Positions 29-25,401 of a stretch of DNA of 32,000 nt are shown piece by piece. The DNA comes from a virus. The stretch is from positions 30,087 to 62,086 of the IMG/VR virus record IMGVR_UViG_3300036768_001582, one strand, 5' to 3'. The position numbers were made by a program, and so were the translations under genes. The number at the start of each line of letters is the position of its first letter. The stretch's first letter is position 1. The notes under the pieces are model-generated. The model did no database searches and had not been told where the DNA came from. It worked only from the letters and a program-made list of their open reading frames with translations.

Positions 29-97
29 CGCGTGACAGCGGAGTCGCCCCGTACACTACGACAGAACTGAGAGACTAGGAAGCCTCTCGTGCGCCGT

Positions 98-5595: not shown

Positions 5596-5628
5596 GGTAT
5601 CACGTGCGTGAGAGAATCGGTATCCCCT

Positions 5629-6699
5629 TCACACGAGCGGGAGGATGGTCGAGCGGCAGTTGCCGTGCAGCGGTGGGCAGGTGCAGCCCTTCGCCTGGAG
5701 CTGCGCGTCGGAGAGGCGCGTGTTGAACGAGCCGGTGTCGTCGAGATTGCCGACCGCGTTATCCACGACGTCGGCGAGGCGGTCGCGCGAGCCGTCCCGG
5801 TTCTTCGTGTAGAGGTACTCCACGCCGTTCTCGTCCTTGCCGACGTTCACCCACGGCTGGATGAAGCGGACGTCCTCGGGGTCGCTCGACGCGGCCACCT
5901 TCTTGTACCGCTTCAGGTCGTTCACGACGTCGAACGTGCGGCCGTGCATGAAGCGGCACTGGAGGCTCGTGACCTCATCCAACACGGCCTCGAACATGTA
6001 CCGCTCGATGCCCGCGTCCTCGTACGCGCGGAGAGAGCCGAACTGCCGCGCGCGCCCCGCGTACACGCTGCTGACCATGTTGTAGTAGGCCCGCGAGCGG
6101 TTCACGTTCATCTTCACGAGCGCGGCTTCAATCTCGCCGCCAATCTCGACGCGGCCGAGGCCGTTCTTGAGACCCTCGGCCACGACTTTCCGAGCCAGCT
6201 CGCTCGCCTTGTCCGCGCGCGCCCCGTATTCGTCGCGGACGTAGTGCGCCTGGGCCTTCGCGGCGTGCGCGGCCACCTTCTTGTCCGTGACGGTGAGGCT
6301 CGCGTTCACGTCGAGCCCGAACGTCGCCTTGGCGCTCGTGCGCGCGCCGCCGGCCACGCGCGTGTACGCGCCCTTGAACGTGGTCTGGATGGCGGGGAGC
6401 ACCGCCTTGGGAGTGTCTTGGAGCGCGCGGTTGGCCGCGCGCATGACCGCTTCCTGCTTCTCTGCCGATGCCGTCGTCCAGTCGATGTCGAGCGCGTCGA
6501 GAGCGCGCGCCATCGCAGCGGCTTCGGCGGGGCCGGTGAGCCCGAGCAGCGCGTCCTGGAGCCGCTTGATGATGACGAGGAAGTCGCCGGGGTCGAGCGG
6601 GTCGAGCGCCTTGCGGACGTCGACGAGGAAGACGCGCTTGAGCACGTCCTCCGCCGCTTCGGCGCCCGCGACGTAGAGGTCAGCCGCGGGGCTCGTCAT
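5629..6699 (-). CDS. Head morphogenesis protein, Phage_Mu_F / SPP1 gp7 family, 356 aa
   Basis: Motifs AGIERYMFEAVLDEVTSLQCRFMHGRTF and the C-terminal CPPLHGNCRSTILP are characteristic of MuF-type proteins. It lies immediately downstream of the portal gene, with a 20-nt overlap. Confidence 0.85.
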   Translation of the reverse strand: MTSPAADLYVAGAEAAEDVLKRVFLVDVRKALDPLDPGDFLVIIKRLQDALLGLTGPAEAAAMARALDALDIDWTTASAEKQEAVMRAANRALQDTPKAVLPAIQTTFKGAYTRVAGGARTSAKATFGLDVNASLTVTDKKVAAHAAKAQAHYVRDEYGARADKASELARKVVAEGLKNGLGRVEIGGEIEAALVKMNVNRSRAYYNMVSSVYAGRARQFGSLRAYEDAGIERYMFEAVLDEVTSLQCRFMHGRTFDVVNDLKRYKKVAASSDPEDVRFIQPWVNVGKDENGVEYLYTKNRDGSRDRLADVVDNAVGNLDDTGSFNTRLSDAQLQAKGCTCPPLHGNCRSTILPLV

Positions 6700-9067
6700 C
6701 GGAGATGGCCGCGAGGACGCCGGGGTCGGCCAGGAGGCTCTTCGCCGCGCGCACGCGCGCCTCGGGGCTCATCTCCGCGCGCTTCGCGGCCATGAACTCC
6801 GCGCGAGCCTGCTTCGACTCCTCCGCGAGCAGCGCGTTACGGACCTGGAGCAGCGCGCGCGCCTTGTCGGCGAGCGACGGACGGAGGCGCCTGAACTTCG
6901 GGCGCTTGCCCTGCGCGGGCTGGAGGCCGCCGGCCTGGGCGAGGTCGGCCCCGGCGAGCGTCCCACCGACGTCGGGGACGTTGTTCGCGCCGAGGTTCGG
7001 GCCGCCGTCGTCGCTCTTCGGCGTCGCGACGGGCTGCGCGGCGGTCGCGTAGGGGTGGCGCGCCGCGATGGCGCCAGCCATCCCCGCGGTCGGCGGGAGG
7101 CCCCCGGCCGGCGGCGGGAAGCCGCCGAAGCCACCGCTGTACATGTACTGCGACACGGTCATCTCGCCGGTCGGGTCCGGCGAGCCGTCCGGGAGCAGCT
7201 TCGGGCCGAGGCCGGCCGCCGCGCGCGCCTCGTTGACCGTGACGACGTTGCCCATCGCGGTCGGCGTGAGGATGCTCTGCGCCGCGGCGTCGTCGGGGAC
7301 CAGCTCGTCCGCTTCGCCGCCGACCCACGGGCCGCGCAGCTCCCCGTTCTCCTCGACCGGGATGCCGGCGAGCGTGAGCTGAACGGGCTGCTTCACCCAC
7401 GCGGCGTCGAGCGTCTTCAGCTCCTTGTTGAAGACCTTTTCGGCAATCTGTCGCGCCTCCTCGGGCGTGATGACGCTCGCGTCGGCGAGGAGCTGGATGA
7501 TGGTCGCGAGCTGCTGCGGGTCCGTCATCGACGGAGCGTTGGAGACGAACTTCCAGTAACGGATGCCGAGGTCGGAGAAGAGCTTGCGGTTGATGAGGAA
7601 GTCGAAGTCCTCGCGCTCGGGGCTGAACACCTGCTGCTCCGCGAATTCGAGAGCGGCCTCCGCCGTCGCACGGTTGAAGTCGCGGATGTCTCCGCGGAGC
7701 AGGCGCGGCATCCGGAAGGCCATGCCGACCTTGTCCGTGTTCCGCTCGTCGTAGTCCATGAAGAGGCCGTCCTTGTTCTGGGCCTCCGTGAGCGGCTTCA
7801 GCTCCACCTTCGCCTGCGCGGCGGCGCCCGTGAGCGCGTTCGCCGCTCCGTCGCTCACCGCCTCGATGATGAGCATCTTGTGAAAGTTTTTCTTCCCCTT
7901 GATTTCCGTCTCGATGTAGCTCTCCAGCCGCTTCACCGACTCTTCGGTCATCCGGCCGCCGGAGACGAGACACGCGAGCGGCGGGACGCTCTTGTTCTCA
8001 AAGTACAGGTAGTTGACCTCTTCGGCCTGGCGCGAGCCGAGCACCGCGAGGAGCACGCCAATCCAGCGCGGCACGCCGTACGACGAGCGCGGCGAGTGGA
8101 CCTTGAAGTGGAGCACCTCGGTGGCCGGCGAGACGCCTTCCTCCGCCGCCTTGAGGACGTCGACGCTCTCGTACACCTTGCCCGTCTTGGACGAGATGAC
8201 GCGCGGGTCCCCATACTCCTTGAAGAACACGGTGGACTGCTCGAACACCTGGACGAAGCGGCGAAACTTCTTGCGCTTGGGCTTCTTGACGTAGGTAACC
8301 TCGGTGGCCTTCACCTTGAGCGTCACTTCCGTCGGGCTCGTGTCCTGCGGCATGAGCCGCATCGTGAACGCCGGCAGGTAGGTGAACTCCGCGACCTCCC
8401 CGAGCCCGTTGCGGAGGACTTCGAGGTAGCCGTTGCCGATGACTTCGAGGTCCTGGCGGAGCCGGCGACGGAGCGCGACGAAGGAGAGGTCCTCGCAACA
8501 GAAGTTGAAGAACTGTTCCACGCGCGCCTTCTCCGCGCGCATCGACTCCGCCATCTCCTGCATCCGAGCGGTGACCTCGTCCCCGTTCGGGTCGACCATC
8601 GTGACGAGCGTGGCGGCCTGCTCGGCGGTGACCGTCGGGTCGGCGAGCGCGGCCTCCCGCTCCAGCTCGATGACGCGAGCGACACGGAGCCGCGCGTCGG
8701 GCGCGTCGAGGTCAATGATGGGCTCGAAACGGTGGCCGAAGCCGTCGATGTTCGTCACGTACGCGTCGACGTTCGGGCGCAGCGCGCTGGAATGCTCCAC
8801 GAGCGCGGTGAGCGTGCTCGGGTTGTACGGCGGCTCCAGCGCTCCGGCGTTGGCGAAGCGCTTTTCCACGTCGTCGACGGTCGGGAGCGCGTTGGACTCC
8901 ATGATGCCGTCGGGGCCGGCGTCCTTCATCACGCCGGCGCGGTCGGCGTCGCGGCCGAGGACGTGGAGCTTCACGATGGCCTCGCGGCCCTCGGTCATCT
9001 GCTCGATGCGCTTCCGCAACTCCTCGGGCTGGAGGAGCGCGTCTCCGGGGAGCGCGGCCGCGGTCAC
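6680..9067 (-). CDS. Portal protein, 795 aa, with a long Gly/Ala/Pro-rich C-terminal extension
   Basis: The N-terminal half (EPPYNPSTLTALVEHSSALRPNVDAYVTNIDGFGHRFEP...) fits the Phage_portal pattern. GTG start at 9067 sits in a GTGA overlap with the upstream stop. A MuF-like gene follows. Confidence 0.88.
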   Translation of the reverse strand: MTAAALPGDALLQPEELRKRIEQMTEGREAIVKLHVLGRDADRAGVMKDAGPDGIMESNALPTVDDVEKRFANAGALEPPYNPSTLTALVEHSSALRPNVDAYVTNIDGFGHRFEPIIDLDAPDARLRVARVIELEREAALADPTVTAEQAATLVTMVDPNGDEVTARMQEMAESMRAEKARVEQFFNFCCEDLSFVALRRRLRQDLEVIGNGYLEVLRNGLGEVAEFTYLPAFTMRLMPQDTSPTEVTLKVKATEVTYVKKPKRKKFRRFVQVFEQSTVFFKEYGDPRVISSKTGKVYESVDVLKAAEEGVSPATEVLHFKVHSPRSSYGVPRWIGVLLAVLGSRQAEEVNYLYFENKSVPPLACLVSGGRMTEESVKRLESYIETEIKGKKNFHKMLIIEAVSDGAANALTGAAAQAKVELKPLTEAQNKDGLFMDYDERNTDKVGMAFRMPRLLRGDIRDFNRATAEAALEFAEQQVFSPEREDFDFLINRKLFSDLGIRYWKFVSNAPSMTDPQQLATIIQLLADASVITPEEARQIAEKVFNKELKTLDAAWVKQPVQLTLAGIPVEENGELRGPWVGGEADELVPDDAAAQSILTPTAMGNVVTVNEARAAAGLGPKLLPDGSPDPTGEMTVSQYMYSGGFGGFPPPAGGLPPTAGMAGAIAARHPYATAAQPVATPKSDDGGPNLGANNVPDVGGTLAGADLAQAGGLQPAQGKRPKFRRLRPSLADKARALLQVRNALLAEESKQARAEFMAAKRAEMSPEARVRAAKSLLADPGVLAAISDDEPRG

Positions 9068-9309: not shown

Positions 9310-9870
9310 CTACCTGGAGAGAGACTCCGAAGCCATCGTCAGTTCACCGACGCGCGTGAGGTACCGCTCCCACGGGAAGTGCGGGCCGGGGTCCCAGTGG
9401 CCGTGCCCCTTGTTGAAGGCGTCGGTCACGTCCTTGTGCCCGCAGAAGCCGCGCTGGCCCATCTGGAGCTGCTCCGGCGTGAGCTTGCACACGGGGATGT
9501 CCCACTTCAGGACGAGCTGCGCGGCGATGACCGCCGAGTGCTCCAGCACCGCGAGGGAGTACGCGTCGAGCCAGTCCTCCGGCTTTTGCCGCGCGTAGCC
9601 CGCGTGTTCGAGGCCGATGCCGTTGCTGTTCGCGCCGGGCGCGTGCCACGCGACGTCGGTGTCCTTCACGCACTGGATGACCTCGCGGTCGTCGATGCAG
9701 TAGTGGGCGCTCGCGCGCGGCGCGTCCTTGCCGGCGAACCACCGCGCGACGTTCCGCGCCGTCCCCGGTTTCTCCGGCGCCTCCATCGTGTGGATAACGA
9801 TGAGGTCGATGCGCTGGCGCGCCGCCGGCGTGAAGTTGCGGGCCTGGATGAAGTCGTACGTGGCGGACAT
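9310..9870 (-). CDS. N-acetylmuramoyl-L-alanine amidase (Amidase_2 / T7-lysozyme-like endolysin), 186 aa
   Basis: Motifs IDLIVIHTMEAP, SAHYCID, AWHAPGANSNGIGLEHAG and GHKDV...HWDPGP. Start re-placed at the internal ATG at 9870 (MSATYDF). The 82-codon ORF-track extension is Arg/Ser/Pro-rich and does not look like protein-coding sequence. Confidence 0.9.
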   Translation of the reverse strand: MSATYDFIQARNFTPAARQRIDLIVIHTMEAPEKPGTARNVARWFAGKDAPRASAHYCIDDREVIQCVKDTDVAWHAPGANSNGIGLEHAGYARQKPEDWLDAYSLAVLEHSAVIAAQLVLKWDIPVCKLTPEQLQMGQRGFCGHKDVTDAFNKGHGHWDPGPHFPWERYLTRVGELTMASESLSR

Positions 9871-10990: not shown

Positions 10991-11620
10991 TTACGGGACT
11001 TGGAGGCAGCGCGCGATGGCGGTGAGGATGACCGAGTCCCCCGCCGCGGTGTGCTGCGCCTGGCAGCGGAATGCCTGGCGGACGCCCATGTTCACGCCGT
11101 CGTTGTAGAACGTGCCCGACGTGACCGGGAGTGTGAAGGGATTGCTCGTCGCGCACGAGCCGGCGAGCAGGACGTCCTTGTTGCTGAGGCACGTCGCGTA
11201 GACGTCGGCGAAGCCGGCCTGCGTGAACGCCGGAGACGGCGAGTTGACGGTGTACACCGTCGCGCGAGTCACCTGCGTGCCGTCGGCGCCCGCCGGACCC
11301 ATCGGTCCCGGAGCACCGGGCGGACCGGGAGGACCCATCGGCCCCACCGGACCCATCGGGCCGGCCGGTCCCGGGTCTCCGGGGTCTCCCTTCTCTGCGG
11401 CCGCGCCGTCCTTTCCCGGAGGGCCTGGCGGTCCCGGAGGGCCTGGCGGTCCCATCGGCCCCTCGGGGCCGGCCGGGCCGCTCGCGACGGCACCCGGCGG
11501 CGTGTTCTGCGGCTCGCACGTCGGAGCCGCGAGCGTCGTCGCGGAGCCCGTGGAGCCCGTCTTGTCCGAGCCGCACGCGACGAGCGCGGCGGCGAGAGCG
11601 ATGGCGATGTAGGTGCGCAT
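10991..11620 (-). CDS. Lipoprotein with a collagen-like Gly-X-Y region and a Cys-containing globular C-terminal domain, 209 aa
   Basis: Start re-placed at ATG 11620 with SD GGAGG 6 nt upstream. The signal peptide [16 protein letters not shown] contains the lipobox LVAC. About 21 GXY triplets ([25 protein letters not shown]...[37 protein letters not shown]). TAA stop. Confidence 0.8.
11282..11479 (-). repeat. Collagen-like Gly-X-Y triplet repeat (coding)
   Basis: Two runs of GXY triplets, interrupted by AAAEK, read directly from the translation of 10991-11620. Confidence 0.85.
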
Positions 11621-11658
11621 AGGTGTCCTCCGACCGATGGACGGCAACGGCTGAGCCG

Positions 11659-12150
11659 TTATTCCCTGGACGGAGGAGCCGGCGACGTCGAGCGCGACCG
11701 GCGCACGTCCTGGAGCGTCCGGCGGCCCGGCGCGATGCCCTGCTCCCGGAGCCACGGATTGATGCGCGCGAGCACGCGAGCAGCGCGCGGCGCGGTGTGC
11801 TCGTTGTTCAGGATGAGCCCCTCGACGTCCTCCGCCACGGCGAGCATGTCGTCCCCGGCGTCGAGCCGCGCCCAGAGCGCGTCCCACTTCGCGTTCGCGC
11901 GGTCGGTGGGCGCCTCGCGCGAGAGGAACGCCGCGAGCGGCCCGTCCTTCTTGCGGCCGGTGCGCGTGTCGCGGAGCCCGCGGAGGGAGTCGGCGTAGCC
12001 GAGCAGCTTCCTCGCGGCCAGCTCCTCCTCGTACGCGTCGAAGCGATGCGAGCCGCAGCTCCCGCACTCCGTCGAATGGGTGTTCAGGCCGGCCGCGAGC
12101 GTCTCCAGCTCGTCGGCGATGGCGTTCAGGCGGTCGGCATAGGTAGGCAT
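11659..12150 (-). CDS. Hypothetical 163-aa protein
   Basis: Start re-placed at ATG 12150 (MPTYADRL), with AGAGGA 8-9 nt upstream. Confidence 0.6.
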
Positions 12151-12174: not shown

Positions 12175-12200
12175 GCCCACCGCGCCGAAGCACGGTGGGC
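12175..12200 (-). promoter_or_regulatory. Stable intergenic RNA hairpin: 11-bp stem with a UUCG tetraloop
   Basis: The minus strand reads GCCCACCGTGC-TTCG-GCGCGGTGGGC (one G-U pair). It lies in the 70-nt gap between the 12221-12850 and 11659-12150 CDSs. No U-tract follows. Confidence 0.5.
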
Positions 12201-12220: not shown

Positions 12221-12850
12221 TCAGAGCACCGCGACGCCGCGGTCCCCGTAGACGACCGTGCCGGCGCGGAAGGAGCGCTTGAGCGCGCCCCAGAGCATCT
12301 GGCGCACGCGCGTCTTCTCGCTCGGGAGCTGCGGGACGGGGATGCGGTTGGCCTTCTTCTCCGCGTCGTAGCGGCGGCCGGGGAGCCCGCGCACGAGCGA
12401 CACGAACGTCTCGTTGAACGGCGTCTTCACGACCCAGAAGCCGGAGCCGTCCTCGAAGACCTCGACCTTGCCGATGCGGCGCGCGATGCGCTCCGCGAGC
12501 TTCTTGAAGCCCAGCTTGTCGAGCGCGGCGACGTACGCGGCGACGAGCGGCCCGTCCTGCTCGCACGCGATGCGGTACACGAGCACGTTCGCGCAAGCGC
12601 GCGCCTCCGTGCTGAGCGCCGCCTTCGCGGTCAGCTCCATGTAGACGTCGACGGGGAGCGTCGCGGCGAGCGCCGAGACGACCGCGACGACGTCCACCGC
12701 GACGTCGGGCTGGGTGAAGCCGTGCTTCTTGCGGCACTCGGGGCCAACGCCCGTCTCGACGGAGAGCGCGTCGACCAGCGGCCGCGAGCAGCAAGCGCAG
12801 AACGTCGCGACGAGCTTCGTCGCGGGCGCGTTCTCGTACCCGCCGCTCAC
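12221..12850 (-). CDS. 209-aa protein with an N-terminal DUF6011-like zinc-ribbon motif
   Basis: GTG at 12850 in a GTGA overlap. The motif CACCSRPLVDALSVETGVGPECRKKHG resembles the CxxCGRxL..S...GIGPxC signature of DUF6011 as I remember it. Confidence 0.65.
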   Translation of the reverse strand: MSGGYENAPATKLVATFCACCSRPLVDALSVETGVGPECRKKHGFTQPDVAVDVVAVVSALAATLPVDVYMELTAKAALSTEARACANVLVYRIACEQDGPLVAAYVAALDKLGFKKLAERIARRIGKVEVFEDGSGFWVVKTPFNETFVSLVRGLPGRRYDAEKKANRIPVPQLPSEKTRVRQMLWGALKRSFRAGTVVYGDRGVAVL

Positions 12851-13056
12851 GAGCACACCTCCACCGAGCGGACGCCGTAGCGGGCAGCGGCGCGGGTCGC
12901 CTCGCGGCGCGCCTCGGGGAAGGAGCCGTAGAAGCTGCGGGTGACGCTCTCGCCGGCGAACTGGAAGACCCAGAGCCCCTCGCCGCGGGGCTCGCGGCCG
13001 TGGGCGGCGCGATACTGGCTGGTCGAGACGCGAACGTGGCTGACGGGAACGGGCAT
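12847..13056 (-). CDS. Hypothetical 69-aa protein; first gene of promoter cassette P1
   Basis: ATG at 13056 with SD AAGGAG 7 nt upstream. A promoter-like element lies about 40 nt further upstream. Confidence 0.6.
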   Translation of the reverse strand: MPVPVSHVRVSTSQYRAAHGREPRGEGLWVFQFAGESVTRSFYGSFPEARREATRAAARYGVRSVEVCS

Positions 13057-13094
13057 CGGGCTCTCCTTTGCGGCCGCTTCGGGCCGTACAGAGA

Positions 13095-13123
13095 AGCCTA
13101 ATTCCGGCTTCGTACTCTTGCAA
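13095..13123 (-). promoter_or_regulatory. Sigma-70-type promoter P1 (-35 TTGCAA, 17-nt spacer, -10 TAGGCT)
   Basis: The minus strand reads GAAAAAAGAGATTCGGAAGACTTGCAAGAGTACGAAGCCGGAATTAGGCT. It matches the copy near 16800 at 40 of 41 positions. It lies in an AT-richer island and is followed by a GGCC-N6-GGCC hairpin and the AAGGAG SD. Confidence 0.6.
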
Positions 13124-13161
13124 GTCTTCCGAATCTCTTTTTTCGGCCAGCCGGAATTAGG
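13097..13161. repeat. Perfect 12-bp inverted repeat bracketing promoter P1
   Basis: cctaattccggc (13097-13108) and gccggaattagg (13150-13161) are separated by 41 nt. That spacer contains the -35 element, and the left arm overlaps the -10 element. Confidence 0.8.
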
Positions 13162-13793
13162 TGTATGGATTCGTAGAGTTCAACCACCTTCTGGCGGTAC
13201 TCATCCGGCCCGTTCACGAGCTTCGCGAGCGCGAGAAGCGCCGCGCCCGTCTCGTCGTCGCGCGACCCCCACCGGAGCAGCGTCACGAGCGGCCCGCCGA
13301 CCATGTCCGGGCGCTCTTCGCGCTCGTACCCGGAGCCGTCGAGCAGCTTGTAGGCCCAGAACGGGACCCAGACCGCGCGCCGGTCGGGCGCCTTCCCCGG
13401 GCGTCGGCGGCCAAAGGCCGTCCGCGTCGGGAGCAGCTCGATGCGCACGCGGCCGCGGAGCAGCAAGTCCATCCACGCCTCGACGCGCCACTCCTCGTAC
13501 CGCGACGACTCCGGCGCGAACGGCCCGAGAAGCCGAAGCCCGCGGCGGCGCGCGTCTCGCGCGAAGACGCCGGCGCGGTGGTGGTACGTCTCGACGTGCG
13601 CCTCCCATCCGCGTTCGAGGAGGACGCGGTCGCACACGAGGCACTTCAACTGGCGCTCTCCGCGCGGCGTCCGGCGCGCGTAGTAGTCGGCGGGGAAGGG
13701 GTACACGGCGTCCTTCGTGAAGGGGACGTCGTGCGGCTCGCTCCACGGCTGCATGACGCCGCGCCGGAGCCCTCGGGGAGTGACGACGTTCAC
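13098..13793 (-). CDS. Hypothetical 231-aa protein; its 3' end runs through promoter P1
   Basis: GTG at 13793 in a GTGA overlap, with SD GGAGG 5 nt upstream. The last 22 or so codons (..VELYESIHLIPAGRKKRFGRLARVRSRN) have AT-rich third positions and coincide with the promoter cassette. Confidence 0.6.
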   Translation of the reverse strand: MNVVTPRGLRRGVMQPWSEPHDVPFTKDAVYPFPADYYARRTPRGERQLKCLVCDRVLLERGWEAHVETYHHRAGVFARDARRRGLRLLGPFAPESSRYEEWRVEAWMDLLLRGRVRIELLPTRTAFGRRRPGKAPDRRAVWVPFWAYKLLDGSGYEREERPDMVGGPLVTLLRWGSRDDETGAALLALAKLVNGPDEYRQKVVELYESIHLIPAGRKKRFGRLARVRSRN

Positions 13794-14482
13794 GTGAACC
13801 TCCACCACGTGAGGAGCAGCGTACGGACGCCGCCGGGGCCTTCGAGGTCCATCGTGCTCTGGAGCGTCCGGAGCGCGTCGGGGCCGTACGTGTGCGCGTA
13901 CAGCGCCGCCTCCGCGCCCAGCGCGCGCTGCTCCGCGCTGCCGACGCGGAGAAAGCGCACGACGAAGCTCCATGCGTCGTAGACGTGCGGCGGGAGCCGA
14001 TAGTGGACGCTCGTGCGTGCGTCGCCGAAGCGCCGGAGCCCGAACGCGCGCTGCGCCCAGAGGAGCCGGTCCCCGTAGCGCCGCTTCACGAGCCGGCAGA
14101 CGCTCTCCGCGCTGACCTTGTACTTGCGCGTCCGGCGTCGTCCGCGCGCGTCGCGGCCCAGGTCCTTCTCGTACCAGCCCGGCGCCCGGAACCAGACGAT
14201 GCGGAGCGGGAGCGTGTCCGAGAACGGCGGCGCGCACACGAGCGCGGTCCATATGTGCTCGACGGCGGAGCTGATGCCGCTGTTCGGGCCGGAGAGCAGC
14301 GGACCCGCGACGCGCCATCCGGCGGCCTCGGCCTCCGCGGCCGTCTTCGGGATGGGGTACGGAAACGGCTTCCAGCCCGGCGGAGGGCTGTTGTGGTCGG
14401 AGCGCACGCCCTCGGGGAGCGACGCTTCGACCTCGGCATCCGACAGCGCCGCCGGCGGCTTCTTGACGGTGGGGACGGCCAT
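13790..14482 (-). CDS. Hypothetical 230-aa protein
   Basis: ATG at 14482 in a TGATG overlap. Typical codon bias. The ORF-track start was trimmed by 14 codons. Confidence 0.6.
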   Translation of the reverse strand: MAVPTVKKPPAALSDAEVEASLPEGVRSDHNSPPPGWKPFPYPIPKTAAEAEAAGWRVAGPLLSGPNSGISSAVEHIWTALVCAPPFSDTLPLRIVWFRAPGWYEKDLGRDARGRRRTRKYKVSAESVCRLVKRRYGDRLLWAQRAFGLRRFGDARTSVHYRLPPHVYDAWSFVVRFLRVGSAEQRALGAEAALYAHTYGPDALRTLQSTMDLEGPGGVRTLLLTWWRFT

Positions 14483-15135
14483 CACCGCACCTCGTCGAAG
14501 CGCGAGAGGACGGTGAGCTGCCACTCCTGCTCCGGCGGAGTCGGCGGCGCGAAGACTTCGCGCGCGAGCAGCGCGATGGCGTCGACGCGGCGCTTGTTCG
14601 CGTCGCGCCGGACGCTACACGATTCATCCTCGTCGACGGGGTACATGTCGAAGACGGCGAGCAGCGCCTTCATCGTCGTCACGTCGGCCATCGCGCGCTC
14701 CAGGAAGAGCCGCATCGACGCCTGGTCCTTCGGGACCTCCGAGCTGTCGCAGCGGCCCGCGCGGACGTCGGCCAGGTCCGGCTTCACCATCGGCCACTCG
14801 CGCGCGAACCACGCCGCCCACTCGGGCGCCCATCCGTCGTCGGTGAGCGAGCCGCGCGAGTCCTTCACCGTCGGCCAGTCGATGAACGGGAGGCCGAGCG
14901 CCCGCAGCTTCGACCGCGCGCTCCACGACGACGACCACCGAGCAGCCTTGAGCCGCTTGACGGCCGTTGCCTGCTGGCACCGCTTCGTCTTCACGTGGTC
15001 GGCGAAGCGCCCGCGCTCGACGGGCATCCCGCACCCGGTGCATTCGCGCCGCGTGAAGTGGTACTCCGGACGAGCGCGGAGCGCCGCGAGCATCTGCGCG
15101 ACGATGCGCGCCGCCGGCCCGACGATGTCGCTCAC
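14482..15135 (-). CDS. Hypothetical 217-aa protein with a CxxC...C zinc-finger-like element
   Basis: GTG at 15135 in a GTGA overlap, with SD GGAGGG 6 nt upstream. Motif CTGCGMPVERGRFADHVKTKRC. Confidence 0.6.
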   Translation of the reverse strand: MSDIVGPAARIVAQMLAALRARPEYHFTRRECTGCGMPVERGRFADHVKTKRCQQATAVKRLKAARWSSSWSARSKLRALGLPFIDWPTVKDSRGSLTDDGWAPEWAAWFAREWPMVKPDLADVRAGRCDSSEVPKDQASMRLFLERAMADVTTMKALLAVFDMYPVDEDESCSVRRDANKRRVDAIALLAREVFAPPTPPEQEWQLTVLSRFDEVR

Positions 15136-15530
15136 GACGAGCCCTCCGGCTTCGCGTACGCGAGCACCTCGCCGCCGTCGTCGGAGAGCTTCGCGAGGAA
15201 CGCGTCCATCGCGCGCTGCGTCTTGAGCACGCGGCGGCGCGGCGCCTTGCCGGGAACGCGGTACGCGACCTCGACGGCGTCGAACGCCTCGACGATGTAG
15301 CCGCGGGGGACGCCGGTGAGGCACGCGTTGCGCGCGCTCCAGAACGTGTCCCCGTCGCGCTCATTGCGCTCGAACAGGACGCGCTCGCCCTTGGCGACCG
15401 CCAGCCCGAGCTTCGTCGTGACATCGCGCTTCGCGACGCCGACCTGCATGCCGTCGAAGCGGCCGCGGTACTGCGGGAACGCGGAGACGGCGTCGTTGGC
15501 TTCCTGGATGAGCTGCTCGCGGGTCTTCAT
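15132..15530 (-). CDS. Hypothetical 132-aa protein; first gene of promoter cassette P2
   Basis: Start re-placed at ATG 15530 (MKTREQLIQ), with SD AAGGAG 8 nt upstream inside a leader similar to that of P1. Confidence 0.65.
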   Translation of the reverse strand: MKTREQLIQEANDAVSAFPQYRGRFDGMQVGVAKRDVTTKLGLAVAKGERVLFERNERDGDTFWSARNACLTGVPRGYIVEAFDAVEVAYRVPGKAPRRRVLKTQRAMDAFLAKLSDDGGEVLAYAKPEGSS

Positions 15531-15570
15531 CGTTGGGCTCCTTTGCGGCGTCTTCGCGCCGACCCAATAG

Positions 15571-15598
15571 AGCATACGGATTCTTCCGACTCTTGCAA
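15571..15598 (-). promoter_or_regulatory. Sigma-70-type promoter P2 (-35 TTGCAA, 16-nt spacer, -10 TATGCT)
   Basis: The minus strand reads CGGAAGACTTGCAAGAGTCGGAAGAATCCGTATGCT. It shares the 18-mer CGGAAGACTTGCAAGAGT with P1 and P3. The leader has a GGCG-N6-CGCC hairpin followed by AAGGAG. Confidence 0.55.
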
Positions 15599-15633
15599 GT
15601 CTTCCGCGGTCGATTCTTGGTAATTGGTCGAAA

Positions 15634-16059
15634 CTAGCGGGGATTCTGCCGCACGAAGACGTACGCCAGCACGTTCGGCGGAACGTCCGCGCGGCGCGGA
15701 GTCGTCGGGCTGAGCCGGCCGTCGAGCACCGCGAGCGCGAGCCCAGCGCGGACGTCGCGCGGCTCCAGCCCGTAGATGTCCCGGAGACGGGACACGAGCG
15801 CCGGCTCCTCGACGCCCAGGTGCCTGAACGGCGAGGCTGCTACGGCCTGGACGACGAGCGCCGCGGCGCTCTCCGGGAGCACCTGCGCGAACGTCGTCCC
15901 GCACTTCCGGCAGTTGCGGAGCCGGAGCGCGACGACGCCGTCATCCCAGAGGTCGATGCCGCTCGCGGGGAACGGGAGCGCCCACCACTCTTCAGCCGTG
16001 TACGTCGCGCCGCAGGCGCAGACGTGCGGCAAGCACGGCGGCCGGTCGGTGTCACCCAT
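15634..16059 (-). CDS. Hypothetical 141-aa protein with a Cys-pair (zinc-ribbon-like) N-terminus
   Basis: ATG at 16059 in an ATGGGTGA overlap. Motif CLPHVCACG...CRKCG. Confidence 0.55.
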   Translation of the reverse strand: MGDTDRPPCLPHVCACGATYTAEEWWALPFPASGIDLWDDGVVALRLRNCRKCGTTFAQVLPESAAALVVQAVAASPFRHLGVEEPALVSRLRDIYGLEPRDVRAGLALAVLDGRLSPTTPRRADVPPNVLAYVFVRQNPR

Positions 16060-16285
16060 GGGAGTCCACCGGGAACGTGAAGGACGAGACGTTCCAGCCA
16101 CCGTCGGGGCGACGCTCCTCGACGCCGACGATGACGCCGCCGGGTTCGTAGTCGTCGTCCATCGTGCGCTGCGCGATGCGGCGGGCTTCGGCTTCGTTCG
16201 CGGCGTCGACGTCGAGCAGCTCCCGCGTGAACGGGTTGCCGTTCCACTCCGCGCAGACGACGAAGGCGCGCAGTTTCGGCTTCAC
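16052..16285 (-). CDS. Hypothetical 77-aa protein
   Basis: GTG at 16285 in a GTGA overlap, with SD GGAGG 6 nt upstream. Confidence 0.6.
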   Translation of the reverse strand: MKPKLRAFVVCAEWNGNPFTRELLDVDAANEAEARRIAQRTMDDDYEPGGVIVGVEERRPDGGWNVSSFTFPVDSHG

Positions 16286-16542
16286 GACGCACCTCCGAAG
16301 AACGCGAGCGCGGCCGCTTCGGGCTTGTTGAGGAGCGGGTACGCGTAGCCGTGCGTGGCGCCGGACGCGCGGACGGCCTCCTGCGACGGCGCCAACTCCG
16401 TCGACACCTCGACGGAGTAGGAGCCCTTGCGGCAGCGGAGCGCCGCGACGCCGACGGGCGAGAGCGCGTGGACGGAGAGCACGGGCTTGTACCCCATCCG
16501 CGCGCACCACGCGCGGAACGCTGCCTTGACTGCGGCGCTCAC
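16282..16542 (-). CDS. Hypothetical 86-aa protein
   Basis: GTG at 16542 in a GTGA overlap, with SD GGAGG 4 nt upstream. Confidence 0.6.
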   Translation of the reverse strand: MSAAVKAAFRAWCARMGYKPVLSVHALSPVGVAALRCRKGSYSVEVSTELAPSQEAVRASGATHGYAYPLLNKPEAAALAFFGGAS

Positions 16543-16751
16543 TGGACCTCCACCGGCGTCGAGCCGTGCATGTTGACGACGTGCTCCGGCTGGCCAATCT
16601 CGCGCGCCGTCGACGTCGTCGTGATGCGGACGTAGCCCTGGCCGCACTTGAGCGCGCCGTGCTTCGCGACGTGCCAGCGGGAGTCGGTGGACCCCACCAC
16701 GCGGAACGTCTCGCCCCACTGGATGCTCTTCAGAGTGCGCTGCTTGGCCAT
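16539..16751 (-). CDS. Hypothetical 70-aa protein; first gene of promoter cassette P3
   Basis: ATG at 16751 with SD GAAGGAG 9 nt upstream. A promoter-like element lies about 45 nt upstream. Confidence 0.6.
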   Translation of the reverse strand: MAKQRTLKSIQWGETFRVVGSTDSRWHVAKHGALKCGQGYVRITTTSTAREIGQPEHVVNMHGSTPVEVQ

Positions 16752-16793
16752 CGTCGTCTTCTCCTTCGCGGCGTTCTTTGCGCCGGTTCAGAG

Positions 16794-16822
16794 AGCTTAC
16801 GGCCGGCTTCGTACTCTTGCAA
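16794..16822 (-). promoter_or_regulatory. Sigma-70-type promoter P3 (-35 TTGCAA, 17-nt spacer, -10 TAAGCT)
   Basis: The minus strand reads GAAAAAAGAGACTCGGAAGACTTGCAAGAGTACGAAGCCGGCCGTAAGCT. The leader has a GGCG-N7-CGCC hairpin followed by GAAGGAG. Confidence 0.6.
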
Positions 16823-16850
16823 GTCTTCCGAGTCTCTTTTTTCTATTCAC

Positions 16851-16913
16851 ACCCCAACGGGGTCGGATTCCTTGAGGAATCCGGCGCGAAAAAGCTCAGC
16901 CCAGTACCGGGCT
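16851..16913 (-). terminator. Cluster of three hairpins ending the tail/fibre operon; one is followed by a T-run
   Basis: The minus strand reads AGCCC-GGTACT-GGGCT, then GAGCTTTTT (16889-16913). Next comes the 8-bp stem CGGATTCC-TCAA-GGAATCCG (16864-16883), then ACCCC-GTT-GGGGT (16851-16863). All lie between the stop at 16912 and promoter P3. Confidence 0.4.
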
Positions 16914-17142
16914 AGCGGGGCCGTACCGTCTCCGCCAGCTCCGGCGGCAGCCGGTCGTACCGCCAGAGCGTCGCGGTCGCGACGAAGCCGGAGCCGTCGT
17001 GCTCCGCGCGCGCCTGGATGACGAGCACGGTGTCCGGGTCCGCGTCGGGGACCGTCGCGGCGAGGTCGGCGAGCAGCGCGGAGAGCGCCTCGGGTGCCGT
17101 CGCTCCGCGTGCGACGTGGACGGTGGAGTACCGGCGCGGCAC
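16912..17142 (-). CDS. Hypothetical 76-aa protein
   Basis: GTG at 17142 in a TAGTG overlap. GC-rich third positions. The ORF-track upstream extension is Arg-rich and looks non-coding. Confidence 0.5.
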   Translation of the reverse strand: MPRRYSTVHVARGATAPEALSALLADLAATVPDADPDTVLVIQARAEHDGSGFVATATLWRYDRLPPELAETVRPR

Positions 17143-17892: not shown

Positions 17893-20800
17893 TCACGCCT
17901 TGGGCTTCGCGCGTCCCTTCGGAGTCGGAGCCGTCGTCGCCTTCGCCGTCGGGCCGAGGACGCTGCTCGCGCGCGCCTTCGACGCGGCTTCGAGGACGGA
18001 CGCGAGCGCCACCGCGCCGAGGACGACGCGAGCGCGCGCCTTGGGCTGGACGAAGATGCGCGCCACGCCCGGCTTCGGAGGCGGCGGCTCAGTGAAGTAG
18101 AACGCCGCACCGTCGATGACGAGCGACGAGAGCGCGAGCTGCGCGGAGCCGGTGAAGCGCTGCTGGGCGAACGCGAGGCCGGCGAACGGGCTGAGGGCGA
18201 GCGTCGCGGTGCCCGTGACCGGCGGCGGGACGTACACGCCCGAGCCGGAGACGTCGAGCGGCGACAGCGCCAGGATGGCCGTGCCGGTGACCGCGCTTCC
18301 TCCGACACCCGCCGGCGAGAGCGACGAGAGCGACAACGCCGCCGCGCCCGAGAACGTCTCCGCGCCCGCCGCGGTGCTCGCGAGCGGCTGGAGCGCAAGC
18401 GAGGCCGTGCCCGTGACCGGGTTGAGCGCGTTGCCGCTCGCCTCGCCGGCGAGGGACTGGAGCGCAAGGGTCGCGGAGCCCGTGAAGCGCTGCTCTGCGG
18501 CCGCCGTGGAATTGAGGGGCGCGAGGGCCAAGTTGGCCGCGCCAGAGAAGGTTTCTTCTCCCGCAGCCGTCGCCGCGAGCGGCGAGAGCGCGAGCGAGCC
18601 GGTGCCCGTGAAGAAGACGCCCTGACCGCCGGCGCCTTCGGCGGAGAGCGGCGAGAGCGCCAGGGTGGCTGCTCCGGTGAACGTCTCGGCGCCCGTGGCG
18701 CTCGCGTCGAGCGGCCGGAGGTCGAGCGCAGCGGCCCCGGCGAAGGTCTCGGCACCCGCACCGGACGACGAGAGCGCCTGGAGCGCCAACGTCGCGGTGC
18801 CGGACACGCCCCACGCCCCGACCGCGTCGAGGCCGAGGGACTTGAGGTCCAGGGTCGCGGTGCCGGTCACCGGATTGGCCACGTTGCCGCTCGCGTCCCC
18901 GAGCAGCGGCGCCAGCGCGAGCGACGCCGTGCCGGTGAACGTCTCCGCGCCGGTGCCCTGGGACGAGAGCGGCGAGAGCGCGAGCGACGCCGTTCCCGTG
19001 AACGTCTCGATGGCGACCGCGCTCGCGGACAGCGGCGAGCACGTGAGCGACGCGGTCCCGGTGACCGGGTTGGCGACGACGCCGGAGCCCGTCGACGCGA
19101 GCGGTTGGAGGTCGAGCGAGCACGTACCCGAGAACGTCTCCGCGCCCGTCGCGGCGGCAGACAGCGACGACGCGGCGAGCGTCGCGGAGCCGGAGAAGGT
19201 CTCGATGCCGCTCGCGGACGACGAGAGCGGCGAGCACGCGAGCGTGGCCGTTCCCGTCACCGGGTTGGCCACGTTGCCGCTCGCGCTGCTCGCGAGCGGA
19301 GAGGCGGCGAGCGTCGCGGAGCCGGAGAAGGTCTCGGCGCCCGAGCCCGTCCCCGACAAGGACGAGAGGGCCAGCGCACACGTGCCGGTGAAGGTTTCGA
19401 GCGCGGTCCCCGAGGACGAGAGCGGCGAGAGGGCGAGCGAGCACGTCCCGGTCACCGGGGGCGGCGTGTTCACGCCGGAGGCCGACGACGAGAACGGCTG
19501 GAGCGCGTGGGTGGCCGAGCCCGAGAACGTCTCCGCGCCGGTCGCGGAGCTGCTGAGCGGGGAGAGCGCGCACGTCCCCGTACCCGTGAAGCGGAGCTGC
19601 CCGGAGCCCGACGACGAGAGCGACGAGAGCGAGAGCGAGCACGTCCCGGAGAACGTCTCGCTGCCGGTCGCGGAGCTGCTGAGCGGCGAGGCGGCGAGCG
19701 TCGCGGTGCCCGTGAACGTCTCGGCCCCGCTGGCCGCGCCGCTGAGGGGCTGGAGCGCGCACGTCGCGGTCCCGGTGAACGTCTCGACCCCGTTCGCCGA
19801 CGACGAGAGTGACGAGAGCGTGTGCGTGGCGGTGCCGATGAAGCGGACCTGGCCGCTCGCGGAGAGCGAGAGCGGCGAGAGCGCGAGCGAGCCAGTGCCC
19901 GTGATGTTGACCGCGGCGGCCGTGACGAATTCCGCCATGGCCCAGCGGTCCACGTCGCGGATGCGCGCGTCCTCCCAGCCCGTCGTGGCGGCCACCATCC
20001 AGAGCGCTACGCCGCCCTGCATGTAGTCCGCGCCGCCCGCGCCGTAGCCGAAAAAGATGTACTGGCCGCCGGCGTTGGGGTTCCCGTCGAGGTTCGCCGC
20101 CGACTGCTGGAGCGTCGTGAGGTCCCCGTCCTTGTGCAGCTTGTGGCGGCCGCGGTCCTGGCGCTGCGTCGTGAGGTGCCACTCGCTGAAGCCGGTGTTG
20201 ACGAAGAGCGCGCGCCCGTCCGCGCCGCCGGCGTCGAAGAACGCGGAGGCGTGCTTCGGGACGCCGCTCTGCTGGACCGCGTTCAAGCCGAGCCAATAGG
20301 CGCTCGTGGACCAGACGCCCTTCGCGTCGTAGCCGAGGGTGGAGCCGACCGTCCACGTGTCGAGCCGCGACACCGTCCAGACGATGGTTCCTTCCACCGA
20401 GCCGGAGCCGTCGGGGGCCAGCGCCTTCTCCGCGTCGGCGATGCCGAGCGAGGGCGCGCCGCAGTTCACGCCCACGCGCGCCTGGACGTCGCGGAGCTGC
20501 TCGTCAGCGCGCTCGTCTTCGAGGACGCCCGCGTAGTATTCGTGGGCGTAGATGTACCCCTCGAACATCGCGCTGAGCGCGTAATTGCCGAAGAGACGCG
20601 GCACGCCGGTCGTGACCTGGACGCCGCCGAAGGCCGCCGACGACCACGCGCTCATCGTTCCACTCGCCGCGTCCCCGACGCGCAGCTCCATCGTCCCCGC
20701 CGTCCCGTCCCATCGAATCTGGATGAGCAGGTAGTTGTTCACGATGACGGACGACGGCGGCATCACCGTGACCATCTGCCAGCCGTCGTTGGGGCCTCCA

Positions 20801-21576
20801 CCGAGGTCGCGGCCCACGCCGTCGTACGCGCCGAACGTCACGCCCGCGTCGTGGACGTGGACGCCGACGTACCCGAGCCCGTCGGAGAAGACGGCTGGAT
20901 TGGAGTAGGGCGACTGCGCCGTGTTCGTGCCGAGCACCGCGGGGAGCGCCGCGAGCGGGTAGACGAGGAACGTGGCGGTGCCGGCCACGCCCGTGGTCTG
21001 CATGAGGTCATCGACGGTGATGCCCGCCGCGTCCAGGTAGTCGTCCACGCCGTCGCCGCGCGGAGCGCCGCCGACGTCGGTGGGCTGGTTGCCCGCGGTG
21101 CCCTGGGTGAAGTCCCACCCCGGCGTCGTGTTCGTTGCCGGCCACGTCGCGATGCCACCCCCGATGGCGTACGCACCCGCGTTGTAGACCTCGGTGATGG
21201 CCGCGGAGATGCCGGAGCGCATCCGGTGCGAGCCGCCGAAGTAGACGTAGGACGAGCCCGCCGGCGTCGTGTCGCCGCCCATCGTCGGGCACGCGACCTC
21301 GGAGACGAAACCGCGGAACGTCCAGCGCAGCGGCACGGCGTCCCCGTACGGCTTCCACGGCGAGATGACCGAGGACTCCCACTTTCGGACGGTGCCCCCG
21401 TTGATGGTGATGCGGGCGCTGTCGTTCGCGTCGAGGATGGCCGCGAAGCCCATCCCAGCGCTCTTGATGGGGTACAGCGACGGGTCGTCCTCCCATGCCG
21501 GACGCTCGACGGGCGCGTGGCCGAATTCGCGCTCCCCGTTGTCCCAGCCCAGGTTCCCCGCGTCGATGCCGAACAT
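17893..21576 (-). CDS. Tail fibre or receptor-binding protein, 1227 aa: N-terminal region, two LamG (Laminin_G_3)-like domains, about 28 tandem 21-residue repeats and a basic C-terminal tail
   Basis: SD GAGGAG 9 nt before the ATG at 21576. LamG hallmarks: PRGDGVDDYLDAAG..., LLIQIRWDGTAGTMELRVGD, FEGYIYAHEYYAGVLEDERADEQL, and a second GGADYMQGGVALWMVAATTGWEDARI. The repeats were read directly from the translation. Confidence 0.85.
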   Translation of the reverse strand: MFGIDAGNLGWDNGEREFGHAPVERPAWEDDPSLYPIKSAGMGFAAILDANDSARITINGGTVRKWESSVISPWKPYGDAVPLRWTFRGFVSEVACPTMGGDTTPAGSSYVYFGGSHRMRSGISAAITEVYNAGAYAIGGGIATWPATNTTPGWDFTQGTAGNQPTDVGGAPRGDGVDDYLDAAGITVDDLMQTTGVAGTATFLVYPLAALPAVLGTNTAQSPYSNPAVFSDGLGYVGVHVHDAGVTFGAYDGVGRDLGGGPNDGWQMVTVMPPSSVIVNNYLLIQIRWDGTAGTMELRVGDAASGTMSAWSSAAFGGVQVTTGVPRLFGNYALSAMFEGYIYAHEYYAGVLEDERADEQLRDVQARVGVNCGAPSLGIADAEKALAPDGSGSVEGTIVWTVSRLDTWTVGSTLGYDAKGVWSTSAYWLGLNAVQQSGVPKHASAFFDAGGADGRALFVNTGFSEWHLTTQRQDRGRHKLHKDGDLTTLQQSAANLDGNPNAGGQYIFFGYGAGGADYMQGGVALWMVAATTGWEDARIRDVDRWAMAEFVTAAAVNITGTGSLALSPLSLSASGQVRFIGTATHTLSSLSSSANGVETFTGTATCALQPLSGAASGAETFTGTATLAASPLSSSATGSETFSGTCSLSLSSLSSSGSGQLRFTGTGTCALSPLSSSATGAETFSGSATHALQPFSSSASGVNTPPPVTGTCSLALSPLSSSGTALETFTGTCALALSSLSGTGSGAETFSGSATLAASPLASSASGNVANPVTGTATLACSPLSSSASGIETFSGSATLAASSLSAAATGAETFSGTCSLDLQPLASTGSGVVANPVTGTASLTCSPLSASAVAIETFTGTASLALSPLSSQGTGAETFTGTASLALAPLLGDASGNVANPVTGTATLDLKSLGLDAVGAWGVSGTATLALQALSSSGAGAETFAGAAALDLRPLDASATGAETFTGAATLALSPLSAEGAGGQGVFFTGTGSLALSPLAATAAGEETFSGAANLALAPLNSTAAAEQRFTGSATLALQSLAGEASGNALNPVTGTASLALQPLASTAAGAETFSGAAALSLSSLSPAGVGGSAVTGTAILALSPLDVSGSGVYVPPPVTGTATLALSPFAGLAFAQQRFTGSAQLALSSLVIDGAAFYFTEPPPPKPGVARIFVQPKARARVVLGAVALASVLEAASKARASSVLGPTAKATTAPTPKGRAKPKA
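18094..19905 (-). repeat. About 28 in-frame tandem repeats of a 63-nt (21-aa) unit; consensus approximately TGTATLALSPLSSSASGAETF
   Basis: Residues about 558-1161 of the fibre. Most units are 21 aa. Seven are 23-24 aa, six of which replace ETF with xxNPV or PPPV. Copies have diverged, with scattered Cys substitutions. Confidence 0.85.
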
Positions 21577-22694: not shown

Positions 22695-23552
22695 TCACTT
22701 CTCCACGAAGAGCGCCTGGCCGTAGACCTCGGGCGCGGTGGTCGTGTTCGGGTACAGCATCATGAACAGGCACGCGTCGCTGTTCGTGCCGAGGTCGACG
22801 GGGCCACCGGCCTTCAACATGCAATTCCACTGCTCTCCGGCCCCGATGGTCGAAAGCGGCAGCGTCGCGATGCGCTTGAACATCGTCGGCCCGAACGCGC
22901 CCGCGGTGCCCGTCGTCGCGGTGACCTGGACGGAGGCGATGGCGCGGAGCCCCTTGTCCCCGGAGAGTACCGGGAGCGGGATGAGCCGCTGCGCCTCTCG
23001 GAAGCCGGTGTTCCCGAAGACGACGAGCGGGCCGACCTGCGCCGTGTTGCCGGCGTCGTCGGTGTACGAGGACAGCTTGATGGTCGTCGTCGTCGCGCCA
23101 ATCTGGGTGTACACCTCGGCGGCCGCCTCGACGCCCTTGCCGTCGCTCGGGGCGCGCGAGGGAAGCGCCGGCGTGTTCACCGTCTGCGCGGTGATGACCG
23201 TTCCCGACAGGTTGCCCTGCTGGTTGTAGCGGTCGGCGATGACGTACGTGCCGACGACGAGCGACGAGAGCGTGAAGCTCACGAGCCGCTTCTTGGCGCC
23301 GCTCGCGGGAGCGGCTTGGGCGAGCGCGCCCGCCGTCGCGTTCGTGACCGCGGCGCTCGCTCCGGGAGCGGCCGAGGCGGCCGCGCCGGGGCTGCCGTCG
23401 TACTGCCAGAGCGAGACCCAGCGCCCCGCCACGAGCGTACCCGGAGCCGCGCCCGCGACGCGTGCCGACTTGTAGAAGTTCAGCACCTCCGCCGTAGACG
23501 ACGTCGCGAGGTTGATGAGGTTGGAGTAGTCGGTAATCGCCTCACCGGCCAT
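22695..23552 (-). CDS. 285-aa virion/tail-associated protein, paralogue A
   Basis: ATG at 23552. Same length and conserved blocks as the 21583-22440 product. Confidence 0.75.
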   Translation of the reverse strand: MAGEAITDYSNLINLATSSTAEVLNFYKSARVAGAAPGTLVAGRWVSLWQYDGSPGAAASAAPGASAAVTNATAGALAQAAPASGAKKRLVSFTLSSLVVGTYVIADRYNQQGNLSGTVITAQTVNTPALPSRAPSDGKGVEAAAEVYTQIGATTTTIKLSSYTDDAGNTAQVGPLVVFGNTGFREAQRLIPLPVLSGDKGLRAIASVQVTATTGTAGAFGPTMFKRIATLPLSTIGAGEQWNCMLKAGGPVDLGTNSDACLFMMLYPNTTTAPEVYGQALFVEK

Positions 23553-25270: not shown

Positions 25271-25401
25271 GGCCAGAGGTCCCGCCGCCAGCGCCCCGAG
25301 CGGACCCAGTCCACGAACGCGCGGACGAGCACCAGCGCGACGTACGCGAGCAGGATGAGCGCCACCGCGCCGAAGACGGCGAGCCCGATGACGCAGAGCA
25401 T
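25267..25401 (-). CDS. Small single-pass membrane protein, 44 aa (51 aa if it starts at GTG 25421)
   Basis: MLCVIGLAVFGAVALILLAYVALVLV followed by the basic tail RAFVDWVRSGRWRRDLWP. It lies immediately downstream of the tRNA. Confidence 0.45.
   Translation of the reverse strand: MLCVIGLAVFGAVALILLAYVALVLVRAFVDWVRSGRWRRDLWP

Follow-up and report, generated by a model that had tools for sequence, protein, structure and literature searches.

Promoter-early stem-loop (PeSL) cassettes of the T4-type phages RB49 and phi1 contain a strong sigma-70-like early promoter, AT-rich sequence upstream of it and a stem-loop whose position varies (Arbiol et al. 2010, PMC2839356). About 50 copies sit in hyperplastic regions ahead of orphan open reading frames (ORFans), where they mediate modular shuffling, and their promoter activity, terminator activity and mini-circles were shown experimentally (PMC2839356). 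Here, we describe repeated promoter-leader cassettes in a 32,000-nt stretch of viral DNA (hereafter the window), the right half of the 62,086-bp IMG/VR virus record IMGVR_UViG_3300036768_001582 (contig G000). Three copies, named P3, P2 and P1 in the order of transcription, each preceded a block of small genes in the window, and two more (P0 and P-1) were located elsewhere on the contig. Judged from sequence, it is fairly probable that the five copies are sigma-70-type early promoters of a single class, read by the host RNA polymerase and equipped with leader hairpins, which double as exchange patches.

The 18-mer CGGAAGACTTGCAAGAGT, hereafter the box, had exactly three copies in the window, all on the minus strand (13114-13131, 15589-15606 and 16813-16830), against a chance expectation of 0.01. 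Scanning the whole contig for it, as the original prediction had proposed, revealed a fourth exact copy (P0, contig 1886-1903) and a degenerate fifth carrying GACTTGCAAGAGT (P-1, contig 472-500), both on the same strand, so that the count of three copies held for the window and became five for the contig. All five copies were intergenic, on the coding strand and ahead of a Shine-Dalgarno (SD) sequence and ATG, with the common layout TTGCAA-16/17-TA(A/T/G)GCT, 5-bp GC hairpin, SD, ATG. The identical core first noticed at 13095-13123, 15571-15598 and 16794-16822 proved to span exactly the -35 to the -10 of P1, P2 and P3, with spacers of 17, 16 and 17 nt and the -10 hexamers TAGGCT, TATGCT and TAAGCT, respectively. 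Other details of that description were recovered as well: P1 and P3 were identical at 40 of 41 positions, CGGAAGA direct repeats stood on both sides of the P2 -35, each copy was followed by a GC hairpin and an AAGGAG SD, and the three sites were the only GC dips within 12-18 kb. In the 62-kb contig, TTGCAA occurred only at the five cassettes, and the four runs of at least six A (A6-8, either strand) each lay just upstream of P3, P1, P0 or P-1, which makes a chance origin very unlikely.

The P3 cassette (16749-16842, minus) comprised an A6 tract (16837-16842), the -35 TTGCAA (16817-16822) within the invariant box, a 17-nt spacer, the -10 TAAGCT (16794-16799), a CGGCG/CGCCG hairpin (16769-16785), the SD AAGGAG (16761-16766) and the ATG (16749-16751). 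Just upstream, three stem-loops stood in a row (16851-16914, minus; fold z -2.6, equaled by 1 of 200 shuffles), the first of which (16897-16914) started at the stop codon of the upstream 76-aa gene and was followed by a T5 run, resembling a terminator. The P2 cassette (15528-15606, minus) had its -35 at 15593-15598, a 16-nt spacer including the second CGGAAGA (15582-15588), the -10 at 15571-15576, the hairpin at 15546-15561, the SD at 15538-15543 and the ATG at 15528-15530, with neither an A-tract nor an upstream stem-loop. The P1 cassette (13054-13161, minus) contained an A6 tract (13138-13143), the -35 (13118-13123), a 17-nt spacer, the -10 (13095-13100), a CGGCC/GGCCG hairpin (13071-13086), the SD (13063-13068) and the ATG (13054-13056). 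It was enclosed by a perfect 13-bp inverted repeat (13097-13109 and 13149-13161; fold z -4.1), and the stop codon TAG of the upstream 231-aa open reading frame (ORF) fell inside its -10. Across P1-P3, stems began 8-9 nt past the -10 and closed loops of 6-7 nt, with AAGGAG 6-9 nt ahead of the ATG; stem sequences were CGGCG/CGCCG except in P1.

Two subtypes could be distinguished: A (P-1, P0 and P2), with a 16-nt spacer of the form GAGTCG(G/A)(A/G)AGAATCCG, and B (P1 and P3), with a 17-nt spacer. P0 joined an A-type promoter to a P3-type leader end; the copies are therefore mosaics of each other. An exact-motif scan of IMG/VR gave no match, and a scan of Joint Genome Institute (JGI) metagenomes gave only three chance matches, in contigs of 23-45% GC, so that these scans supplied no extra sequences for covariation analysis. 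As a side observation, the intergenic segment 29524-29617 (minus), which lacks TTGCAA, held two A5 tracts and the series AAAAAGAGACGTCTC...GGGCCGGTAAGAG, which recalls the A-tract, GAGAC and -10 elements of P3; the segment could represent a variant cassette or one that has decayed.

All five copies displayed sigma-70-type promoter geometry, with a -35 matching TTGACA at 4 of 6 positions, a 16- or 17-nt spacer and TAAGCT, TATGCT or TAGGCT as the -10. They were placed upstream of genes in the sense of transcription, and promoters of this type were conserved at orthologous sites in related phages. The original reading of the repeats as promoter-leader cassettes is supported at the level of sequence and comparison by geometry, by orientation ahead of SD and ATG and by the orthologous promoters; the cassettes are real and non-random, and are very probably promoters of one early-type class.

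A capsid-based search yielded four related viral records, and a protein map displayed conserved portal-to-tail synteny. One of them, G001, is a complete relative (a 96.9-kb record with terminal overlap) with a capsid protein 72% identical to that of G000; proteins of G000 and of the compared relatives were only 35-50% identical. None of the four records carried the G000 box sequence. The pattern TTGCA[AT]-16/17-TAnnn[TC] was found five times in G000, four times in G001 and five times in G003, against 0.4-0.9 occurrences in shuffled sequences (0.7-0.9 for G001 and G003). A gene started within about 100 nt downstream of 12 of these 14 sites, and at two G003 sites the nearest called genes lay 35 and 307 nt further on. 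Some G003 sites adjoined the ATG directly, which suggests that their predicted transcripts would be leaderless. The AAA-ATPase gene had such a promoter upstream in G000 (P-1), G001 (56284) and G003 (25161), as did a 300-aa gene in G001 (53648) and G003 (24439). Only the hexamers and their spacing were shared across the phages, with nothing else alignable and flanks that were each phage's own; the conserved -35 surroundings read CGGAAGACTTGCAAGAGT in G000, ATTGCAATACTTGCAATCACTGCAATCATGCGTATGAT in G001 (three TGCAAT repeats at 10-bp spacing) and ATCTCTTGCATC in G003. This is what functional promoters would predict, since exactly the sigma-70 determinants were kept across proteins of such low identity. 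Separately, TTGACA was scarce on both strands relative to a simple base-composition expectation (1 vs 7.3 in G000, 9 vs 17.8 in G001 and 5 vs 11.9 in G003).

The cassettes lay in a plastic part of the genome. The gap between terL and the portal gene, which holds P1-P3 3' of the fibre gene, measured 17.6 kb in G000, about 5.5 kb in G001, where it opens with one of that phage's own promoters, and 0.27 kb in G002; terL and portal being adjacent in G002, the region is an insertion zone. The blocks had first been placed at a junction between tail and head modules, a position better described as this hypervariable terL-portal insertion downstream of the fibre gene. A strain variant from another sample (public contig L041) documented one exchange: relative to window 15287-15530, in its positions 1289-1699 the first ~83 codons of the 132-aa gene behind P2 had given way to a Cys-rich stretch of unrelated sequence. 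The last 50 residues of the protein and all flanks, on both sides, were about 99% identical. The left junction fell exactly at the P2 leader SD (GGAG|CCCAACG to GGAG|ACGACG, the P0/P3-type ending), and no source of the replacement was found in the genomes compared. All public contigs of the G000 phage broke at 16819 and near 13133-13250, i.e., at the repeats. Public sequencing runs containing the phage were SRR11728137, SRR11727984, SRR25435768 and SRR25478807. The shared ~40-85-bp cassettes would also serve as homology patches for the exchange of gene segments, as PeSLs do.

With mosaic copies, a natural variant whose junction falls in a leader, and an exact motif private to the G000 phage, the repeats might also be taken for scars of recent duplication or cassette insertion with no present promoter function. 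That explanation is very improbable: conservation is block-wise, the -35 box, -10 and stem being kept while spacers differ between subtypes, the geometry to SD and ATG is fixed, and diverged relatives keep hexamers and spacing at orthologous sites though nothing else aligns.

The reading as host-polymerase early promoters gives a simple picture of expression. Each cassette presents an A-tract (UP-like, in 4 of 5), TTGCAA, a 16- or 17-nt spacer and TAnGCT, and would be read by host RNA polymerase with its primary sigma factor early in infection. In G001, the two orthologous promoters headed the replication arm (ATPase, helicases, DnaB, DNA polymerase, SbcCD); the G000 contig ends just at the corresponding arm. 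The separate timing once suggested for the cassettes is thus unlikely, as all copies are of one promoter type and that type heads the replication arm in relatives; P1-P3 would fire together with that arm, which uses the same promoter class. The relatives also encode a small extracytoplasmic function (ECF)-like sigma factor of the sigma-70 family with regions 2 and 4 (G001 18062-18559 and G003 22942-23505, both minus). Its gene is the second after promoter 24439 in G003, and in G001 coding sequence extends up to its start within a unit driven by a TTGCAA promoter. Because this sigma gene sits inside units of the TTGCA[A/T] class, the simplest cascade would have host polymerase with primary sigma reading that class first. 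In this way, the cassettes would make autonomous units of the small blocks of accessory genes, embedded in the late region within the hypervariable insertion, and the terminator-like hairpin ahead of P3 would insulate them upstream. We infer promoter activity, the sigma factor used, timing and the role of the hairpin from sequence and comparison.

The leader hairpin admits more than one role. With a start about 7 nt past the -10, the 5' end of the transcript would lie 2-3 nt ahead of the 5-bp GC hairpin, which AAGGAG and the ATG follow at once, and such a 5'-terminal hairpin could protect the mRNA end and keep the ribosome site open. Minimum free energy folds added an outer stem pairing CUCU with the SD, which is probably not transcribed if the start lies at that distance. 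Promoters of G001 and G003 carried non-homologous hairpins at the same position, and the occurrence of unrelated hairpins at the same place favours a structural role (5' stabilizer with exposed SD) over a sequence-specific one. Alternatively, since four cassettes carry a 5-bp stem and a GAAGA-type loop at an unvarying distance from the promoter, the hairpin could be a regulatory RNA site, either targeted by a translational repressor or RNase or used in nut/boxB-like fashion to load an antiterminator, with the purine-rich loops CGAAGA, CGAAGC and CAAAGAA read by a phage protein; transcription of the whole genome in one direction through several hairpins without T-runs would suit antitermination. 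We consider such a site improbable, given that the loop is not conserved (CAAACGA in P0), that P-1 and the relatives carry unrelated hairpins, and that an Rfam search of the leaders returned no family match. Membership among lambda-type nut sites was rejected: the boxA-like GCTCTCT shares positions with the -10 and would lie outside the transcript, loop sequences vary from copy to copy, and no N-like protein was identified.

Several observations weigh against host-polymerase early promoters with functional leader hairpins. A generic sigma-70 scan called no site at the cassettes (scores below 9/12). All 14 promoters of the three phages had TTGCA[A/T] and never TTGACA. In five metagenome-assembled genomes (MAGs) with related phage contigs, TTGACA-16/17-TAnnnT was strongly enriched over a reversed control (15 vs 0, 15 vs 0, 36 vs 4, 23 vs 1 and 70 vs 5 occurrences), and the TTGCAA form showed no enrichment except a modest one in a single MAG (19 vs 4). 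The uniform TTGCA[A/T] together with private invariant boxes of 13-18 bp therefore leaves room for a phage-specific factor. No canonical terminator was found between P1 and the lysis and portal genes, and early timing would require that transcription be stopped by the stem-loop following the 209-aa gene of the P1 block (12175-12200, minus; 11-bp stem, UUCG loop), which has no T-run and is a possible terminator or attenuator closing the P1 unit. As for the hairpin, all 20 stem cells paired in P0-P3 with one compensatory change (G-C to C-G, in P1), but with a single such pair among four related sequences the covariation was not significant (116 of 500 shuffles equal), and the advantage of the leaders over shuffles in folding was modest (z -1.4 to -2.2).

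These points bear on an alternative that we regard as unlikely, though not negligible, namely that the cassettes need a phage factor (the ECF-like sigma of the relatives, an activator or a repressor) reading the invariant box GACTTGCAAGAGT plus CGGAAGA. Under this alternative, every phage would have its own promoter specificity and could switch all of its cassettes together. Each phage keeps its own extension around the -35 (the G000 box, the G001 TGCAAT repeats and the G003 sequence), the -35 is uniformly TTGCA[A/T] while candidate host lineages enrich TTGACA, and a sigma-70-family protein with regions 2 and 4 is encoded by the relatives. In both relatives, though, the only promoter seen upstream of the sigma gene is of this very type, which creates a bootstrap problem, and a TAnnnT -10 at 16 or 17 nt is a signature of primary sigma. 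The window's small proteins have no recognizable DNA-binding domain. The 8-bp palindrome around the -35, for which a role as a shared regulator site had been suggested, carries little weight: TTGCAA being its own reverse complement, one extra complementary pair suffices, and the palindrome is trivial. At ECF promoters, an AAC-type -35 stands 16-17 nt from a CGT-type -10. An ECF-promoter reading of the cassettes was rejected, since the box contains no AAC and the only CGTA, which P1 lacks, sits at a distance of 13-14 nt from TGCAAG. GGAAC-N15-18-CGT had no occurrence on the G000 coding strand, the region corresponding to the relatives' sigma gene lying outside the contig.

It is doubtful, if conceivable, that the box is the site of a co-evolving phage transcription factor (an ECF-like sigma, or an early-shutoff repressor or activator). 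If it were, the whole set of accessory and replication operons would be a regulon specific to the phage, to which the leader hairpin would add a second regulatory layer. Behind P0, a 109-aa protein (contig 1495-1824, minus) with no Pfam match contained a helix-turn-helix-like segment, ISRSTAFALARAGLV; this protein is a candidate DNA-binding protein for the box.

A search for late-promoter motifs gave only one weak lead, TCTCTCA. The motif occurred three times on the coding strand (window 5609-5615, window 68-74 and contig 25375-25381, minus), in short intergenic segments upstream of structural genes, followed respectively by a 110-aa gene after Mu-F, a gene after the capsid operon terminator and a 747-aa gene. 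Each occurrence was preceded by a TA-containing hexamer, and the TTGCAA promoters likewise carry CTCT right after the -10. TCTCTCA may represent a second (late) promoter or start motif.

The genes behind the cassettes were mostly without assignable function. The P3 block (15634-16751, minus) consisted of four overlapping small genes of 70, 86, 77 and 141 aa, with no Pfam or PHROG match; the P2 block (13098-15530, minus) followed with genes of 132, 217, 230 and 231 aa, and the P1 block (12221-13056, minus) with a 69-aa gene and a 209-aa gene encoding an N-terminal DUF6011 domain. Of the 11 downstream proteins examined, 9 had no Pfam or PHROG match, and the 69-aa protein had only an insignificant one. 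The description of the blocks as ORFans therefore stands as far as Pfam and PHROG functions are concerned, and fails for the DUF6011 domain and for the 217-aa (14482-15135, minus) and 231-aa (13098-13793, minus) proteins, which are paralogues with homologues in a relative. The two belong to a small unnamed zinc-finger family marked by an N-terminal CxxC-x11-H-x5-C/H finger, AG(V/I)P, WxPxW and LRRAxxDxE. Two more members were encoded in G001 (11216-11692 and 51644-52480), also behind TTGCAA promoters. A profile search for the family retrieved about 50 relatives of 135-230 aa among 1.84 billion proteins, none of them with a Pfam domain, and an AlphaFold2 (AF2) model of the family (predicted local distance difference test, pLDDT, 78) had no fold match in the PDB. 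A homologue search with the 132-aa protein returned just the query and a single strain variant. Any part of the block genes in anti-defence or host takeover is a guess.

The G000 record (70.5% GC) is classed as linear, with a completeness estimate of 59%. Codon-position GC analysis placed every gene on the minus strand, transcription thus being one-directional, and the same ORF calls around the cassettes were obtained independently on identical public contigs. In the sense of transcription, the window starts with small genes, which had no Pfam or PHROG match, followed by terL (26706-28139), a tRNA region, two 285-aa paralogues, the 1227-aa fibre (17893-21576, minus), three small genes and then the P3, P2 and P1 units. 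After the 209-aa gene come a 163-aa gene, a collagen-like gene, an Amidase_2-type endolysin (9310-9870, minus), the portal (6680-9067), a Mu-F-like protein, an XkdF-type protease protein and the major capsid protein (461-1408). Located between P1 and the portal, the endolysin belongs to the same one-directional string of genes, and no canonical terminator lies between.

With an HK97-type capsid, Phage_portal and XkdF protease, the phage is not of the T4 type, and its nearest cultured capsid, in siphovirus-like phages, was less than 45% identical. No host could be assigned through capsid similarity to cultured phages and MAG contigs; related phage contigs, short or phage-sized, were found in MAGs of Myxococcota, Gemmatimonadaceae, Phycisphaerae and others. 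A T7-like RNA polymerase (PF00940) had no match in five related records, control genomes likewise giving no signal and the contig being 59% complete.

Taken together, the cassettes represent, in an unstudied lineage, a real but rather ordinary means by which phages express and exchange accessory genes. For this uncultured high-GC lineage of about 100 kb, they give an initial map of transcription, with a single promoter class ahead of the replication arm and of the accessory blocks between terL and portal alike. The promoter-plus-stem-loop shuffling module, so far shown in T4-type coliphages, would be extended to an unrelated lineage, as supported by one concrete natural recombination junction. 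Among the genes without known function, the cassettes mark likely early accessory genes as candidates for host takeover or counter-defence, and they might themselves be used as compact signals for gene expression in high-GC hosts.

Three known systems can be compared with these cassettes. The ompA-type 5'-terminal stem-loops stabilize bacterial mRNAs, as reportedly found by Emory, Bouvet and Belasco in 1992. As in those, the hairpin lies a few nt from the predicted 5' end and directly before the ribosome-binding site; it differs in a stem of only 5 bp and in a 5' end that is predicted only. The class I host-polymerase promoters of T5 and T7 are conserved, repeated early promoters of lytic phages. 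The cassettes resemble them as several near-identical host-type promoters, conserved beyond the hexamers and standing before early blocks, and differ in the box sequence and in a -35 that is TTGCAA rather than the consensus.

By analogy, PeSL cassettes are the closest known counterpart, through a resemblance that appears functional rather than one of family membership. There is no sequence relationship, the copies number 5 rather than about 50, and the phage is an uncultured, ~70% GC, non-T4 phage with an HK97-type capsid whose cassettes are known from sequence. Regarding the terminator role of PeSLs, only the structure ahead of P3 has a T-run here; the constant 5-bp leader hairpin has none and is probably not a terminator. 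No copy-to-copy deletion or circle was seen among the cassettes. Both systems combine a repeated sigma-70-like promoter, an AT-rich stretch upstream of the -35, a stem-loop and a 3' SD with start codon, and in both the stem-loop position varies (here upstream of P3, around P1 and downstream of the -10 in all copies). Both also occupy a hypervariable region ahead of genes of unknown function. PeSL copies act as recombination points, and the junction in the P2 leader and the mosaic copies suggest that the cassettes may do so as well.

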